DNA of 64,000 nt, taken from positions 24,152 to 88,151 of IMG/VR virus record IMGVR_UViG_3300035698_012970. One strand, written 5' to 3'. The notes under the pieces are model-generated. The model searched no databases and was not told the origin of the DNA. It saw only the letters and a list, made by a program, of their open reading frames with translations. This stretch comes from a virus. Made by a program: the position numbers and the translations under genes. Below are positions 36,692-62,498 of the stretch, one piece after another (the stretch's first letter is position 1; each line of letters opens with the position of its first letter).

Positions 36692-36726
36692 AAAAAAGGT
36701 CCTTCGGAATTACCGAAGGACCTTTT
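36692..36726 (-). terminator. Attenuator terminator of tRNA operon 1
   Basis: GGTCCTTCGG-TAATT-CCGAAGGACC-TTTTTT, 7 nt upstream of tRNA-His. Confidence 0.9.
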
Positions 36727-36755
36727 AGTTATGTATTATTAACTTTAACTTAAGC

Positions 36756-36842
36756 TCAGCAAATCCTTATATCGTTCCTACCATGTAAATGGGAGAGCGA
36801 ACTTAGACAGCTTAATAGACTTATGTTAATTATGTTTTTCAT
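36756..36842 (-). CDS. Leader peptide 1 (MKNIINISLLSCLSSLSHLHGRNDIRIC)
   Basis: 28-codon ORF between promoter and terminator; codons 8-20 are all Ser/Leu/Cys/His. Confidence 0.85.
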   Translation of the reverse strand: MKNIINISLLSCLSSLSHLHGRNDIRIC

Positions 36843-52160: not shown

Positions 52161-52192
52161 AAAAAAATAGGTTCCATTTCTGAAACCTATTT
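52161..52192 (-). terminator. Attenuator terminator of tRNA operon 2
   Basis: AATAGGTTTC-AGAAAT-GGAACCTA-TTTTTTT. Confidence 0.85.
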
Positions 52193-52217
52193 GTATATTA
52201 TCGTTACTGTTTTAAAG

Positions 52218-52304
52218 TCACGTTTGATGCAATAGGTTACATGGATTCATATCCCAGATAAAATCTGATCTAAAATTATTAATATTTCTTCCTTGTTCTA
52301 ACAT
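52218..52304 (-). CDS. Leader peptide 2 (MLEQGRNINNFRSDFIWDMNPCNLLHQT)
   Basis: 28-codon ORF between promoter and terminator; core rich in Arg/Asn/Ile/Asp/Trp/Met. Confidence 0.8.
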   Translation of the reverse strand: MLEQGRNINNFRSDFIWDMNPCNLLHQT

Positions 52305-56748: not shown

Positions 56749-57359
56749 ATTTCTTCTATTCTTGTTATCTTAGCAAAAATATTACCAATAATTTTAGGTG
56801 GTGTACCTACATATGTTCCTCCTGGGATCATTAAATGCCTAATTACTCCGGAATTCATACCAATTGTAACATCTCTAGTTATTTCTATTTTTTCTTTTAT
56901 GTTTGCCGCACTTCCTAGATAAACTCTATCTCCAATATTTACATTTCCTCCAACTATTGCTCCCGGCATTGCGCTAAAAAAATCACCTATTCTGCAATCA
57001 TGTCCTATTTGGTTTGCTCTATTTAAAATAGCATGTTTTCCTATCTGAATATTTGTTGTTAATATTGAATATGCTCCGATAAAAGAACCTTCACCTATTT
57101 CTATATTATCCATTAATAATGATGTGGAGTGAACGAAAGTAAAAAATTTAATATCTTTCGGTAACCTTTTGGTAATTTCACTTCTTTTTTGAGGATCTGC
57201 AATTGCTACCATTACCTCATATTTTTTATGATCTAATTCTGAAATTGGTTTAGTGTGTTCATTAACATATTCATCATCAACAAAGAATGTAACGGGTGTA
57301 CCCATTTGAGCTGCTACTTCTCTAGCATGCCCACCATAACCAATTATTGCTTTTTTCAT
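56745..57359 (-). CDS. Sugar acetyltransferase (PglD/NeuD-like)
   Basis: IIGYGGHAREV, hexapeptide repeats, IGHDC, YVGTP. Confidence 0.9.
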   Translation of the reverse strand: MKKAIIGYGGHAREVAAQMGTPVTFFVDDEYVNEHTKPISELDHKKYEVMVAIADPQKRSEITKRLPKDIKFFTFVHSTSLLMDNIEIGEGSFIGAYSILTTNIQIGKHAILNRANQIGHDCRIGDFFSAMPGAIVGGNVNIGDRVYLGSAANIKEKIEITRDVTIGMNSGVIRHLMIPGGTYVGTPPKIIGNIFAKITRIEEI

Positions 57360-57985
57360 TTCTTGTATATTTCAAAGTTTGATAAATCAGGATATGGGAT
57401 TTCCAAATCTTTATTAGTTTTCTTAGTACCATCAATGTTATAAAATTGATTCATCAATAATAATCCTCTAGCAGCTAATTCTGGCATCATATAGAAATTC
57501 CAACCGAGCATATCAAAATGATCGTCGTGATAAGAGGTCTCACGTCTACCACTATATCTTGCTCGCTTAAACCATAGATATGCCTGATAATTATCAGTTA
57601 GTATTGCTCCGCCCTTGCTCAATTTAAAGTGCTTATATGGACCAGTAAATGAGACACACATGTGGGTATTTGGTTTATACATATCTGCAGTAAACATTAA
57701 TGCTGAATCCCACACCTTAGTTGGTTCTAATTGATATGCACCCTTTAGTGTTTTTCCTTTTGTTGGCTTGAATTTAACTTTACCCCCTGCGTGTATTATC
57801 TCACAGGGTACAGATGGATATGTTCTAGAAGGTATAGTTACTTCTGAATCTTTAATGTTTTCATACATAAGGGATAAAAAAATAGCATTAGATGCATTAT
57901 CTACCGTTACTACGTATGGTGCTCCTGTATAATCACTTAAAGCTTTTTCAAAATTCTCAGTTATCTGGTATACCCCGTTCGCCAT
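57356..57985 (-). CDS. DegT/DnrJ/EryC1/StrS aminotransferase (short form)
   Basis: FEKALSDYTGA, VWDSA, SFTGPYKH, GGAILT, GWNFYM; likely start MANGVY at 57985. Confidence 0.85.
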   Translation of the reverse strand: MANGVYQITENFEKALSDYTGAPYVVTVDNASNAIFLSLMYENIKDSEVTIPSRTYPSVPCEIIHAGGKVKFKPTKGKTLKGAYQLEPTKVWDSALMFTADMYKPNTHMCVSFTGPYKHFKLSKGGAILTDNYQAYLWFKRARYSGRRETSYHDDHFDMLGWNFYMMPELAARGLLLMNQFYNIDGTKKTNKDLEIPYPDLSNFEIYKK

Positions 57986-58417
57986 TTTTAATTTCCTCGT
58001 CTGTTGCAAGTCTTATTGGTACGAATAGTGCAAAACCATCGTCATCCTCAAAGTGATTGCAAGTATCAATAAATGTGTTTCCAAACTTATAGCGGGTATA
58101 TTTGAATTGTTTCTCCTTGTTATCCCATTTTGCAATGGTTGCAATTCTATGCTCTCCATAGTAATGTTGACCATCAATAAGATCAACCTTAGGAACTGCT
58201 CCAGCATTGATTAATCTGGGCACATAGAAGCTTTTCCAAACCTCCGGTTCGGCTTGTGGTAAATTAGGAACATCAACGGTTTTTACAAACTTAGGTAAGT
58301 TATCCCAAGCTTCTTCTTGTTTTTTAACACGAGCTTCTTTATCCTTTCGTATAACAGCTCTAAATTCCGCTATTTGTTCTTCTGTTGGTTTCTTCTTTTC
58401 CATAAGCAAAAGTTTAG

Positions 58418-58489
58418 TACGTCTAAGAAGATTCGAACTCCCATCTCCCGGGCCGTAACCGGGTGTTCTATCCGTTGAACTATAGACGC
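58418..58489 (-). tRNA. tRNA-Arg(ACG)
   Basis: CCCGG-TTACGGC-CCGGG. Confidence 0.9.
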
Positions 58490-59146
58490 TTATGTTTTAT
58501 ATATTATAAATGATCCAGTATACTCATTAGTAACTGTTCCTGTTAGATCGTGTTCTTCACAGAATTCATCAACTGCAGGATTAACTCCAAATACTCCAGT
58601 ATAATTATAATCTCCATCCGGTTTATTATTATCTCTAAACCACATATGTTTATCTATACCATTTTCATGCATTGGATTTGTTGAATCATACCAATCCAGA
58701 CTTAAATAATCATGTCCCATTAATAAACCTCCTTGTTTTATCTTAGGGTACCAAAGTTCGATGTCCTCTTTGACGTATTTATATGTATGATTTCCATAAA
58801 TATAAACAAAATCTAGAGATTCATCGGAAAACAAATCGACTAATTCATTACTTAGTCCTCTTAACATAAAAGCTCTATTTTCAAAACCTTTTATATTATC
58901 TATTGCTTCTTGATAAGCATTAAGATGATTCTTATGATTTGATGCATCCATATATTCATTACCTAAAGGTCTCCAAGGATCTATCATATAAAGTTTACCA
59001 TCCCAGTTTTCCATTATATGTTTACTAAACTGACCTTTGAAAACCCCAATCTCAACTCCTACCTTAGCATTTTCTCTATTTAAGATCCTAGGTATCTCAG
59101 AATCTCTATCAGCATCAATTGATGTAAGCATTTTTCTTTTTATCAT
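58490..59146 (-). CDS. Class I SAM methyltransferase (Methyltransf_24-like)
   Basis: GVEIGVFKG, IDPW, GGLLMGHDY; reads DFVYIYGNH where IDGNH is usual. Confidence 0.85.
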   Translation of the reverse strand: MIKRKMLTSIDADRDSEIPRILNRENAKVGVEIGVFKGQFSKHIMENWDGKLYMIDPWRPLGNEYMDASNHKNHLNAYQEAIDNIKGFENRAFMLRGLSNELVDLFSDESLDFVYIYGNHTYKYVKEDIELWYPKIKQGGLLMGHDYLSLDWYDSTNPMHENGIDKHMWFRDNNKPDGDYNYTGVFGVNPAVDEFCEEHDLTGTVTNEYTGSFIIYKT

Positions 59147-59169
59147 ATTATCTATAGATTACATAAAAG

Positions 59170-59248
59170 TGGGAGTGGAGGGATTCGAACCCCCAATGCC
59201 GAAGCCATAGATTTACAGTCTACTAGGCGACCATTGCCCAACACTCCC
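59170..59248 (-). tRNA. tRNA-Tyr(GTA)
   Basis: GTAGA-CTGTAAA-TCTAT with variable arm. Confidence 0.9.
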
Positions 59249-59567
59249 TTATTGTTTTATATATTTGGATTTTTCATTAATGAAAATACCTTTTTATCCC
59301 TTTCTTCCCTTACATAGAAATCATTAAAAGGTGCATTAATTGCTTTAATCCTATTATCATCCTCTAAATACCATTCTGCTAATTCTAAAGCTGCATACAT
59401 TACATCACCAAATTCACCAAATTCATGATTGTCTCCATACCAACCAGTTTGTTCACCATAGTCTCTAAACTCTATAGAAAAACAAGCATTGCTGCCGTTT
59501 TTATAATGTTCTGGCTCTATATGTATGAAAACATTCTTTAATTGTAATTTATTAAGTCTTTCTCTCA

Positions 59568-60209
59568 TTATGAAATATATTCATGTTTATTAATTAGTTC
59601 CAATTCGTCAGAATTAATTTCCTTCCCTTCCCATTTTATAGAATCTATAATTAATTTAGTGTTTTTAAATAACCTAATTTCTTTTTCTTCATTAAAAGAT
59701 TCATGCTCTAGGTTCAATCTAAGGGTTTCTATCCAATCGATATGTTCTTGTTTAACTGTGGTTTCGAATAATATTATAGCTGTTTTATTGTCTTGATTGT
59801 GTCCCCAATGTGCTTCCGCAGAATCTTCATCATATGTCCAATATCTGCCAATTCTTTTTACCTTACCAGATTTTAATTTTTCCAAATAATCATCACCAAC
59901 TTTCATTTCTCGATAAAGAGTAATTTGGCTACCTAAGTGAGTAAACATATCTTTTAAATTATCAAACCTGTTTTCTAATTCATACTTAAGCCATTCTTTA
60001 AAATCCTCAGATTGGGTAATTTTATAAACCTCATCTTCATCATCAGGATCTAAATTTTCTCTATGTTCCTCCCAACTATATTGAGCTGCATACGGATCAA
60101 GAAATCCTTTTTCATCTTGTAGTTCGATAAATTTTTTATTTATAACCTCTGATGCACTAATGAAAGATAAACTTTTTTCGAATAAACGAAATGTATTAAT
60201 ATTAATCAT
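59568..60209 (-). CDS. Putative ADP-ribosyltransferase-fold protein
   Basis: TLYRE, GRYWT and EKEIRL spacing resembles R-S-E clade ARTs. Confidence 0.45.
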   Translation of the reverse strand: MININTFRLFEKSLSFISASEVINKKFIELQDEKGFLDPYAAQYSWEEHRENLDPDDEDEVYKITQSEDFKEWLKYELENRFDNLKDMFTHLGSQITLYREMKVGDDYLEKLKSGKVKRIGRYWTYDEDSAEAHWGHNQDNKTAIILFETTVKQEHIDWIETLRLNLEHESFNEEKEIRLFKNTKLIIDSIKWEGKEINSDELELINKHEYIS

Positions 60210-60212
60210 AAA

Positions 60213-60935
60213 CTATATATTTGAAATTATCTTATTTTTAAATTCTTTCAGTGTATAAATTACGCTGAAATTAAGGTTTAATTCCTTATATAAATCTAAT
60301 TTATTGAGCCAATATTCATAATCCTTGCCCAACCACTTCTTCCTTTTCTCCCTGTTAATACCATCCAATTCGATCCACTCATCGCTTTCTAACAAATATA
60401 CATCAGATACCTTAGCAGATTCTGGGATTGGTTTATGTGCTTCGAATAGAATCTGATTATCTTCCAATAGTTCATAACATTCTTTTTCCAGAATGGATTC
60501 ATACCTAGTTCCACCCTTTGTTATCCCTTTAGTTCCAAATCCTCCCTTTCTTCCAATCTCTCTTAACCTTTTTCTTTCTTCTATATTCTCACACTGCTTT
60601 TTCTTAGCGATTGATATTTTTTCTCTAGTCTCTGGTAGTATCTCTCTATTCTTCATAAACTTGGAGATATCTTTTCTACGTTCATCAGTAAAGGAGTTTA
60701 ACACGCTATTCTTTATTTTCTCCCTGACCTCTTGTCTATGTGATCCATTATTTATAGACATCCTCTCTTTCTGACTTTCGGTAAGTGGTCTACCCTTTAA
60801 ACTTTTGCTAACTTTTTGGTTAATCTCCTTTCTTTTAGATTTAGTGCTAAACCCTCTAGCACACTTTGGTGAACAGAATCTACCAGATCCATATTCTCCA
60901 CTATGTTCGCTTTCACAATTTTCACAAATTCTCAT
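60213..60935 (-). CDS. PD-(D/E)xK homing endonuclease with MRICENC N-terminal module
   Basis: ESILE, VSDVYL...WIELDG; NUMOD3-like linker. Confidence 0.75.
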   Translation of the reverse strand: MRICENCESEHSGEYGSGRFCSPKCARGFSTKSKRKEINQKVSKSLKGRPLTESQKERMSINNGSHRQEVREKIKNSVLNSFTDERRKDISKFMKNREILPETREKISIAKKKQCENIEERKRLREIGRKGGFGTKGITKGGTRYESILEKECYELLEDNQILFEAHKPIPESAKVSDVYLLESDEWIELDGINREKRKKWLGKDYEYWLNKLDLYKELNLNFSVIYTLKEFKNKIISNI

Positions 60936-60985
60936 GATTGTTTTATTTTATATATCATTCGAACTCATGACTTTTTGTTTGCTTG

Positions 60986-61071
60986 TAGGACCACCCGGAC
61001 TCGAACCGGGATTATACTTCTCGTCTCCACCATGTAAAAGTGGGATGTTTATCCAGTTACACCATGGTCCT
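60986..61071 (-). tRNA. tRNA-Val(TAC) with long variable region
   Basis: CCACT-TTTACAT-GGTGG. Confidence 0.85.
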
Positions 61072-61102
61072 ATATAATAACAAAAGTGATTTCTTGCAAC
61101 CA

Positions 61103-61180
61103 TGCCCATCACGGAGTCGAACCGCTCTGGTTGGGGTCCTGACCCCCGCTTCACTCACCCCCTACTACCACTTCAGGAAC
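61103..61180 (-). ncRNA. Degenerate tRNA-like element
   Basis: T-arm GCGG-TTCGACT-CCGT and a GGGGTC/GACCCC hairpin. Confidence 0.4.
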
Positions 61181-61197
61181 TTTTGTATTTGTTATTG

Positions 61198-61267
61198 TGG
61201 GATAGGAGAGACTCGAACTCTCCAAGGCTGAGGGTTTACAATCCTGGCCAGTATCCTTTCACATCCC
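61198..61267 (-). ncRNA. D-stem-less tRNA-like RNA with GTA loop
   Basis: GGGATG/TATCCC acceptor; GAGAG-TTCGAGT-CTCTC T-arm. Confidence 0.55.
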
Positions 61268-61273
61268 ATATTA

Positions 61274-61384
61274 CTAAGATTTGCCTTTGTGTTTGGCTTT
61301 CCTAGTATACTTCTTCTTGTTGCGTTGGATATTAGGCTTAACTGCCGCCCAGATATCCTGCATTGTCATTTCTACTTTTTTCAT
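61274..61384 (-). CDS. 36-aa basic peptide (MKKVEMTMQDIWAAVKPNIQRNKKKYTRKAKHKGKS)
   Basis: Clean small ORF filling an inter-tRNA spacer. Confidence 0.55.
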   Translation of the reverse strand: MKKVEMTMQDIWAAVKPNIQRNKKKYTRKAKHKGKS

Positions 61385-61400
61385 GATTTCTAATAATTTG

Positions 61401-61495
61401 TGACCCCTCTGGGGCTCGAACCCAGGACCCCCTGATTAAATCTTGATATTTCTTAACTAAAGTCAGGTGCTCTAAGCCAACTGAGCTAAGAGGTC
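61401..61495 (-). tRNA. tRNA-Lys(TTT) with a 20-nt anticodon-loop insertion
   Basis: CCTGA-CTTT[insert]TAA-TCAGG; other arms canonical. Confidence 0.8.
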
Positions 61496-61561
61496 AATCC
61501 TACTAACTTGTTTCCATTGAAGCAAGTTTTTCTAATTTTTTTCTTTCTCTATATGCTTTAG

Positions 61562-61635
61562 TACCCTGTGCCGGAATCGAACCGAGCATTTGGGGAGTGA
61601 AAGTCCCCCGTACTGAACCGTTATACGAACAGGGT
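61562..61635 (-). tRNA. tRNA-Glu(TTC)
   Basis: GGGGA-CTTTCAC-TCCCC. Confidence 0.92.
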
Positions 61636-61641
61636 ATAGTA

Positions 61642-61660
61642 ACCAACATGTCAAAGAACT
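61642..61660 (-). promoter_or_regulatory. boxA-like antitermination motif
   Basis: AGTTCTTTGACATGTTGGT, preceded by a TGTAAAT/ATTTACA hairpin. Confidence 0.75.
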
Positions 61661-61694
61661 GTAAATTTGAGGTATTTACAAAACCTATATCAAC

Positions 61695-61726
61695 AAAAAA
61701 GCCTAAATCTTTTGGATTTAGGCTTT
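61695..61726 (-). terminator. Attenuator terminator of tRNA operon 3
   Basis: GCCTAAATC-CAAAA-GATTTAGGC-TTTTTT. Confidence 0.9.
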
Positions 61727-61745
61727 ATCATTATAGTAATTATTA

Positions 61746-61856
61746 TTACATGATATTATGTAAAGCCCAAAATCCTCCCTCTTCATACTTCTTATAGTAT
61801 GCTACCACGACAGAGCGTGAAGAGTTGTTTACAGTATTTAAGCTATTCAAATTCAT
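61746..61856 (-). CDS. Leader peptide 3 (MNLNSLNTVNNSSRSVVVAYYKKYEEGGFWALHNIM)
   Basis: 36-codon ORF between promoter and terminator; core of Arg/Val/Tyr/Lys/Glu codons. Confidence 0.85.
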   Translation of the reverse strand: MNLNSLNTVNNSSRSVVVAYYKKYEEGGFWALHNIM

Positions 61857-61876
61857 TATTTCTATTTGTTTGAGTA

Positions 61877-61937
61877 TTATATATCTTTTCCTTTTAAAGT
61901 TTCACCAAATATAGGAAACTTTTACGTTATAAAAAAA
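61877..61937 (-). promoter_or_regulatory. Stacked promoters of tRNA operon 3
   Basis: Early-type motif at 61906-61937, GAAAC-N17-TATAA at 61877-61903, GATATATA at 61878-61885. Confidence 0.75.
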
Positions 61938-62162
61938 TTTATTTAATGTTATTTTAAAATTTTTTCTGCTTTTGCATATTCTCGGTATACATCTTTATCT
62001 TTTTCTGCATTGTTTTTGATTGCTTTTTCTATCGCATCTTCTTTACTTAGTGCAAAAAATGTACCTAATTCTTTTACCCCTTCTTCCTCTGTACCCCATT
62101 GGAAGAATACCCGAAATTTAATTCCTTTATTCATATTTTTAATTTGATGGATTAAAATATTA

Positions 62163-62498
62163 TTATTTCTTATTCATCTTCTTTATGATAGCAGCTTGTA
62201 ACGCTTCAGGCAATTTCTTTTGCTTAGCACTTAAACCATTAGGTTTATCGTCCTTCTTATCAGCACATTTGCATTTATCAGCACATTTACATTTACCTTT
62301 ACCAGTACACTTACATTTCTTAGCACATTCACATTTGCTAGCAGCTTTAGCATCAGCTTTACTGTCCTTCTTAGCAGGTTTCTCGCCTTGCTTCTTTAGA
62401 ATAGCATCTTGTAAAGCTTCTGGTAATTTTTTCTGCTTAGCACTTAATTCTTCATTAAGGAATTCATCATATGTGTATACTTTTCTTACTTTTGTCAT
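62163..62498 (-). CDS. Small basic protein with duplicated LSAKQKKLPEALQ motif and Cys-rich core
   Basis: Internal repeat; KCxC repeats; GATATATA upstream. Confidence 0.75.
   Translation of the reverse strand: MTKVRKVYTYDEFLNEELSAKQKKLPEALQDAILKKQGEKPAKKDSKADAKAASKCECAKKCKCTGKGKCKCADKCKCADKKDDKPNGLSAKQKKLPEALQAAIIKKMNKK

Follow-up and report, generated by a model that had tools for sequence, protein, structure and literature searches.

Phage tRNA genes are mostly seen as aids to codon usage or as substitutes for host tRNAs that are destroyed in infection. The locus considered here raises the question of what an intrinsic terminator and a short ORF are doing directly ahead of a set of such genes. 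It belongs to an 88-kb phage contig of 32% G+C, from which a stretch of 64,000 nucleotides (hereafter the window) was analysed, and whose 19 tRNA genes all fall within three clusters. A scan of 57 kb recovered only three hairpins with at least 12 pairs, each fronting one of the three tRNA clusters, while the remaining terminator candidates in the scanned region had at most 9 pairs and occurred in numbers close to the shuffle expectation. All three clusters of this genome share the same layout of leader and terminator (Table 1). An earlier note on this DNA had described the third as a leader-peptide attenuator mirroring its own operon; its coordinates and codons for this attenuator are all correct, and the mirroring is backed by structure, by statistics, by the two sister operons and by the covariation of leader and tRNA set across 21 leader families. 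We favor the interpretation, to which we assign a probability of roughly 0.7, that the locus is a ribosome-mediated attenuator in the style of the trp and ilv operons, which senses the supply of the operon's own tRNAs. Translation of the leader, the role of stalling in deciding termination, the signal sensed and the extent of the transcript are the parts of this interpretation that we infer.

Table 1. Features of the proposed attenuator 3 and its operon, the two proposed sister attenuators and the shared upstream motif (coordinates of the window)
Feature	Coordinates	Strand	Remarks
Motif TTTTTTATAACGTAAAA	61920..61936	-	common to the three leaders (upstream-region alignment); promoter-associated
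Octamer TATATTTG	61906..61913	-	same octamer upstream of leader 1
Leader ORF 3, 36 codons + TAA	61746..61856	-	peptide MNLNSLNTVNNSSRSVVVAYYKKYEEGGFWALHNIM; ATG 61856, TAA 61748-61746
Regulatory run, codons 14-26	61779..61817	-	R S V V V A Y Y K K Y E E
Hairpin 1 over regulatory codons, then U-rich stretch	61779..61824	-	-15.4 kcal/mol
Antiterminator 5' arm GGATTTTGGGCTTTA	61761..61775	-	within codons 28-32, 12 nt before stop
Shared arm TAAAGCCTAAATCC	61714..61727	-	antiterminator 3' arm and terminator 5' arm
Intrinsic terminator	61692..61726	-	12-bp stem, loop CAAAA, then U-tract TTTTTTGTT; hairpin 61726-61698
boxA-like 19-mer AGTTCTTTGACATGTTGGT	61642..61660	-	6 nt before tRNA-Glu; identical at 52118-52100 (operon 2)
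tRNA-Glu(UUC)	61561..61635	-	first gene behind the attenuator
tRNA-Lys(UUU)	61400..61495	-	20-nt insert in anticodon loop
tRNA-Val(UAC)	60985..61071	-	86-87 nt
tRNA-Tyr(GUA)	59169..59248	-	8 nt after stop of ORF 59568-59257
tRNA-Arg(ACG)	58417..58489	-	abuts stop of methyltransferase ORF 59146-58490
Attenuator 2	52165..52304	-	leader MLEQGRNINNFRSDFIWDMNPCNLLHQT + terminator; before Arg(UCU, group I intron), Asp, Trp, Asn x2, Ile, Met
Attenuator 1	36694..36842	-	leader MKNIINISLLSCLSSLSHLHGRNDIRIC + terminator; before His, Leu x3, Ser x2, Cys
Copies of TTTTTTATWACGTAWAW	7612, 8529, 9453, 16568, 27549, 36905, 52396, 54992, 61920	-	
Copy of TTTTTTATWACGTAWAW	2808	+	

Leader ORF 3 is the sole minus-strand ORF of at least 25 amino acids at the locus and sits 111 nt upstream of tRNA-Glu. 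Its stop is followed by two extra in-frame TAA codons (to 61740), resulting in a triple TAA, and the sequence upstream of the ORF is A-rich and devoid of a Shine-Dalgarno element. Codons 14-26 read CGC TCT GTC GTG GTA GCA TAC TAT AAG AAG TAT GAA GAG. A recount upholds the claim that 11 of these 13 match the Glu, Lys, Val, Tyr and Arg tRNAs of the operon by amino acid; under strict wobble 10 of the 13 are read by the operon's anticodons (GTC needs a modified U34), and two, TCT and GCA, lack a cognate phage tRNA. The set of these five amino acids makes up a fraction of 0.306 of the phage's own long ORFs, and of 20,568 segments of 13 residues from these ORFs only 13 reached 11 or more hits; the run scores 11 against its own operon's set versus 6 and 6 against those of the other two operons. 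The arginine codon, as pointed out earlier, is CGC in leader 3 and AGA (twice) in leader 2, each fitting the tRNA-Arg of its own operon. Furthermore, the choice among synonymous codons within the run is biased towards rare ones (P=1e-4, sampling by genomic usage), with P=0.47 for the remainder of the ORF: CGC makes up 1% of genomic Arg codons, and the corresponding shares are 7% for GTC, 6% for GTG, 20% for TAC, 26% for AAG, which is used twice, and 22% for GAG. As these rare G/C-rich codons also form hairpin 1, structure rather than decoding speed could explain the bias. Outside the run, N, L and S predominate among residues 1-13, and these belong to the amino-acid sets of the other two operons. 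The N-termini of leaders from unrelated families (those of the window and of loci L024-L116) are alike, with a start resembling MKN(L/I)(L/I)(D/N)I(L/S).

The match of leader 1 to its operon is complete (13/13), a score that 0 of the 20,568 background segments reach. The operon behind leader 2 begins with an intron-containing tRNA, whose group I intron is recognized by Rfam with 81.5 bits. We prefer to read this predicted tRNA as Arg(UCU), because this is the only junction that follows a U, ends the intron with a G and keeps a 5-bp anticodon stem. Leader 1 shows no convincing antiterminator in the duplex test (z -0.3) and has a much stronger terminator (-21.6 kcal/mol); it may work differently.

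In leader 3 the terminator alone folds with -14.7 kcal/mol (z -5.3, 0/200 shuffles as good) and the antiterminator with -19.7 kcal/mol (z -4.2, 0/200 shuffles as good), such that the latter captures the terminator's 5' arm and outcompetes the terminator when both are possible. The minimum-energy fold of the whole leader is the antiterminated form, and it reproduces the pairing of 61761-61775 with the terminator arm that had been proposed as 14 bp with one bulge: GGATTTTGGGCTTTA and TAAAGCCTAAATCC form 14 pairs, including one G-U, with one bulged U. In the duplex test the leader 3 antiterminator (-14.8 kcal/mol, z -4.9, 0/200 shuffles) is among the strongest of the compared loci. Hairpin 1, which is less distinct (z -2.26, 5/200 shuffles as good), possibly constitutes a pause signal together with the U-rich stretch that follows it. 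No 1:2 pairing of the anti-antiterminator kind was seen in leader 3. As nothing pairs with the antiterminator arm when ribosomes are absent, an untranslated leader should read through. Codons 4-8 of the leader (ATAGCTTAAATA, 61835-61846, minus strand) repeat part of the 5' arm of the terminator and pair with the terminator's 3' arm in the whole-leader fold, which would reinforce the antiterminated state.

The spacing of these elements relates them to the positions a ribosome might take. Only 3 nt lie between the last regulatory codon and the antiterminator arm. The arm would stay free if a ribosome halted within codons 14-23; a halt at codons 24-26 would hide roughly half of the arm and spare the G/C-rich core GGGCUUUA. 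A ribosome at the stop codon would stand 12 nt past the arm, inside the loop that the antiterminator must close, which would favor the terminator. The 19 nt between stop codon and terminator stem leave the hairpin outside the terminating ribosome, which fits the distance dependence relating terminating ribosome and terminator hairpin that has been reported (PMC4824070). The 56 nt from the terminator to tRNA-Glu are occupied by a small hairpin and the 19-mer of Table 1, and the lone sigma-70-like match there (61665-61636) would start transcription inside tRNA-Glu. With no workable promoter in this interval, tRNA-Glu would be transcribed only by read-through. Rfam at gathering thresholds returned neither a leader-family nor a T-box match anywhere in the window; its best leader model, Thr_leader, scored 26.3 bits against the 55 needed (E 0.083) and essentially covered the terminator. 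The T-box model gave no match in 57000-62300 at E up to 1.

Comparable loci were fetched from other phages by the 17-mer core of the boxA-like element. This yielded 33 unique phage loci with terminator, boxA and tRNA array, 32 of which have a leader ORF, ending 21-40 nt before the terminator. These 32 and the three of the window fall into 21 leader families, of which one representative each was tested. The residues of these leaders belong to the set of their own operon in a fraction of 0.573, versus 0.345 for the sets of other operons; in the +1 and +2 frames of the same leaders the own-set fractions are 0.28 and 0.27, and 0 of 100,000 permutations reach the observed match of leader and tRNAs (p<1e-5). 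Thus, across families leader peptides track their own tRNA set, and the signal is frame-specific. Examples are the leaders MKNLLDILMAAVLMVDVLLWAAEEDKLCAVG (locus L029) before Asp, Glu, Val, Leu, Ala and Trp tRNAs, MRTTGTTYQPKQYTQGGKPSV.. (L003) before Pro, Gln, Tyr, Thr, Gly and Lys, MKTILNILPSILRPSIRRS (L116) before Ser, Arg, Pro, Ile, Met and Leu, and MKNLNIILLGGTEADTLTRTAMV (L085) before Asp, Ala, Met, Gly, Leu, Thr and Glu. The 3' end of the ORF also carries a segment complementary to the terminator 5' arm (mean z -2.9; 20 of 35 below -2). Within the largest family (A) the three arms change together in one member; the covariation is weak there, with 17 of 500 shuffles reaching the antiterminator's count, because the family is too conserved, and it is the test across families that carries the argument. 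In the family with Asp, Glu, Val, Leu, Ala and Trp tRNAs, an alignment of ten loci (L024, L029, L041, L050, L052, L054, L068, L091, L098 and L114) displays a conserved CCTCCTTTCTT between stop codon and terminator (columns ~120-135), whose letters we take to be those of the 3' tail of 16S rRNA (the anti-Shine-Dalgarno region).

The tRNA genes behind attenuator 3, called with ARAGORN and Rfam, come in the order Glu, Lys, Val, three ORFs, Tyr, methyltransferase gene and Arg. The Tyr and Arg genes had been placed about 2.5-3.3 kb downstream, past inserted ORFs, and the measured distances from the terminator are indeed 2.45 and 3.28 kb. Minus-strand terminator-like sites are absent from 61698 to 52192, except for a weak 6-bp one at 57306, no copy of the promoter motif lies between 61920 and 54992, and the tRNAs and ORFs around Tyr and Arg are spaced by 0-22 nt. 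In view of these features and of the boxA, a co-transcript of more than 3 kb appears plausible, and the gene arrangement is consistent with one that would reach Tyr and Arg, though promoters of other types inside the ORFs are possible. Also in keeping with such a co-transcript, the leader in all three operons holds codons for tRNAs lying beyond inserted ORFs. The variable region of tRNA-Val is extended, an uncommon feature among Val tRNAs.

Removal of the 20-nt insert from the tRNA-Lys gene leaves a 76-nt tRNA, whose anticodon is UUU (Lys) or UUA depending on the register of removal; the UUA form would be ochre-suppressor-like. No bacterial-type splicing signal is evident for the insert, and an ARAGORN trial of all splice junctions, for this gene and the intron-containing tRNA, gave many alternative anticodons. 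The two AAG codons of leader 3 favor Lys identity; as to a functional gene they are only suggestive. Directly after this gene lies an ORF of 36 codons, nine of them Lys (61274-61384, minus strand; MKKVEMTMQDIWAAVKPNIQRNKKKYTRKAKHKGKS). Two further tRNA-like elements are found on the same strand between tRNA-Lys and tRNA-Val: a degenerate tRNA-Tyr(GTA) with a weak D-arm at 61199-61271, detected only at relaxed ARAGORN thresholds, and an element at ~61100-61180 with a good T-arm and no clear acceptor stem. Neither has an Rfam tRNA match at E up to 1.

More than 120 stretches of bacterial genomes contain the 17-mer core of the 19-mer behind attenuators 2 and 3. Of 126 bacterial occurrences, 54 sit 41-146 nt upstream of the 5' motif of 23S rRNA, the listed record titles among these 23S-linked copies being mainly those of Bacteroidales, Prolixibacteraceae, Flavobacteriales and Cytophagales. 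Only one or two bacterial copies precede a tRNA; on phage contigs 67 of 117 copies have a tRNA within 100 nt downstream. Judged by sequence identity, the 19-mer is the boxA of Bacteroidota rRNA operons, and by analogy it would have a role in engaging Nus factors. The use by phages of the host rRNA antitermination signal for tRNA arrays seems to be undescribed. Given the position of boxA after the terminator, the attenuator would decide first, and a polymerase that passes would then be made termination-resistant.

The motif TTTTTTATWACGTAWAW contains the palindromic core TTACGTAA. The window holds 10 copies of the motif where 1.06 are expected; 9 lie on the minus strand, and the three copies that are exact stand in front of the three leaders. 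Its probable role is that of a phage promoter or regulator site. The octamer TATATTTG fits the Bacteroidota -7 element TAnnTTTG and would on that count function in a promoter. Sigma-70 promoter scans came out at or below the shuffle expectation, a model that may not suit the probable Bacteroidota host. The boxA identity, together with the absence of a Shine-Dalgarno sequence and the TAnnTTTG-like element, points to Bacteroidota as the host.

Fragments near-identical to the window are present in salt-lake metagenomes from several studies, and four salt-lake DNA runs yielded short low-depth contigs that were identical to it and held no informative leader variants. A search of viral contigs for orthologues of leader 3, with the 61-aa upstream protein as query, found no relatives, and the methyltransferase between Tyr and Arg recovered only proteins of 35-36% identity in unrelated contexts. 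The boxA with the start of tRNA-Glu gave no match, and the 14 matches of a back-translated YYKKYEEG pattern to metagenome contigs were all chance occurrences in unrelated sequence. Against GenBank phages the window region had only tRNA-sized matches, and the family-A leader matched in its tRNA segment only, in two uncultured huge phages. With no orthologue found, leader 3 is supported by its own anatomy, by its two sister leaders and by the families of analogous design.

Based on these observations we propose the following course of events. Transcription would start at the conserved promoter near 61936-61906, and a ribosome would translate the 36-codon leader. When the run is decoded fast, the ribosome would reach the triple TAA and occupy or sterically block the arm 61775-61761; the shared arm 61727-61714 would then pair with 61709-61698, and the polymerase would terminate at the U-tract before tRNA-Glu. 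In a shortage of charged Arg(ICG), Val, Tyr, Lys or Glu tRNAs, the ribosome would stall in the run with the downstream arm free, the more stable antiterminator would form and the polymerase would read through. It would thereby transcribe boxA and, by analogy with rRNA operons, be loaded with Nus factors, with which it could continue through the untranslated tRNAs and the interleaved genes. The net effect would be a negative feedback in which a shortage of tRNAs causes these tRNAs to be made; possible triggers are the depletion or cleavage of host tRNAs in infection, or a high demand of the phage for these codons.

Several other explanations of the same layout have to be considered. One is a general translation-stress or timing switch, opened by any slowing or loss of leader translation, as might follow from ribosome shortage, host shut-off, an abortive-infection toxin or amino-acid starvation, with the codons mattering little. 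The default of the naked RNA to the antiterminated form, by which an untranslated leader should read through, and the N-terminal third of the leader, whose N, L and S are amino acids of the other two operons, are both in keeping with it; however, it leaves unexplained the mirroring of the own set in three operons and 21 families as well as the confinement of the rare-codon bias to the run, and we consider it unlikely. That the hairpin is a constitutive leaky terminator of the upstream unit, followed from a short ORF that merely happens to be open in AT-rich DNA, appears highly improbable to us: short ORFs are indeed common in 32% G+C DNA and leader 3 is without a detectable orthologue, but a match of 11/13 in only 13 of 20,568 segments, an antiterminator equalled by no shuffle, the recurrence of the design ahead of all tRNA clusters of this genome and in other phages, the frame-specific signal and a conserved promoter motif of the leader's own all stand against it.

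Two further readings do without the sensing of tRNAs by translation. The codons of the run are complementary to the anticodons of the tRNAs that lie downstream, and the choice between terminator and antiterminator is as in T-boxes, so that one could imagine an RNA of this type binding the tRNAs directly through the codon run. Yet Rfam detects neither a T-box nor another riboswitch, every family keeps its codons in a single frame from ATG to stops with the signal gone in other frames, and a single RNA would have to bind at least five different tRNAs; we give this reading very little credence. The similarity of the N-termini across families, MKN(L/I)(L/I)(D/N)I-like, might alternatively point to a functional micropeptide whose place before tRNAs is incidental, but the peptides are wholly different between families apart from tracking the tRNA set, and the C-terminal residues are dictated by the antiterminator arm, which makes this barely credible as well. 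We accordingly retain the leader-peptide attenuator as the preferred interpretation. As a tentative extension of it, which we hold as possible rather than probable, Bacteroidota phages may test-translate codon by codon so as to gauge the host pool of the tRNAs they carry, and then open a boxA-protected transcript. In this phage the transcript would comprise five tRNAs (with the interrupted tRNA-Lys needing processing) and protein genes over at least 3.3 kb, perhaps 9.5 kb to the next attenuator, the likely purpose being to answer depletion or cleavage of tRNAs by host defences or shut-off. This would amount to a self-regulating circuit of tRNA supply that has not been described for any tRNA gene.

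Leader-peptide attenuation is textbook knowledge for amino-acid operons and pheST, and multivalent leaders are known from enterobacteria in ilvGMEDA (Ile/Val/Leu) and thrL (Thr/Ile), besides trpL, hisL, leuL and pheL. To our knowledge all described leader-peptide attenuators regulate genes for amino-acid biosynthesis or aminoacyl-tRNA synthetases; the genes behind terminator 3 are tRNAs, not genes of either kind. Leader 3 shares with the enterobacterial leaders the short leader ORF, the run of regulatory codons, the terminator with an overlapping antiterminator, the use of several amino acids and of rare codons, and, as proposed, read-through upon stalling. It differs from them in that tRNA genes would be regulated, in that the five amino acids of the run equal the operon's tRNA set, and in its setting, a phage of probably Shine-Dalgarno-poor Bacteroidota; unlike in trp, an untranslated leader 3 is expected to read through rather than super-attenuate. 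The pheM leader of pheST likewise applies leader-peptide attenuation to a component of translation on which decoding of the sensed codon depends, but it controls phenylalanyl-tRNA synthetase, with a single amino acid, on the chromosome. T-box riboswitches, too, respond to the state of a given tRNA by selecting either terminator or antiterminator, but they bind the tRNA directly and need no translation, unlike leader 3 as read here. The rRNA-operon boxA with Nus antitermination is matched in that the phage 17-mer is letter-for-letter the pre-23S element; unlike it, the phage copy heads tRNA arrays and lies after a putatively conditional terminator. The nearest published conditionally expressed tRNA array is the long, silent trn operon of Anabaena PCC 7120, which is induced under translational stress (PMC8421152, PMC10272220). 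There too accessory tRNAs are kept off and switched on when translation is impaired, but control is by a protein, the repressor TrcR acting at the promoter, and a leader, attenuator or terminator is not mentioned (PMC8421152, PMC10272220). No report of leader-peptide attenuation acting on tRNA genes turned up in full-text searches of the literature.

If our interpretation is true, the attenuation logic known from amino-acid operons has come to serve tRNA genes, which would thus receive direct feedback from the speed of decoding, and phages would measure the tRNA pool instead of expressing their tRNAs blindly. The decision on the tRNA pool would furthermore be coupled to the rRNA antitermination signal of the host. 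For annotation it would furnish the rule that a leader predicts the tRNAs of one transcription unit, even across inserted genes, and the leader itself would be a compact natural sensor of the availability of specific tRNAs, which could be reused.
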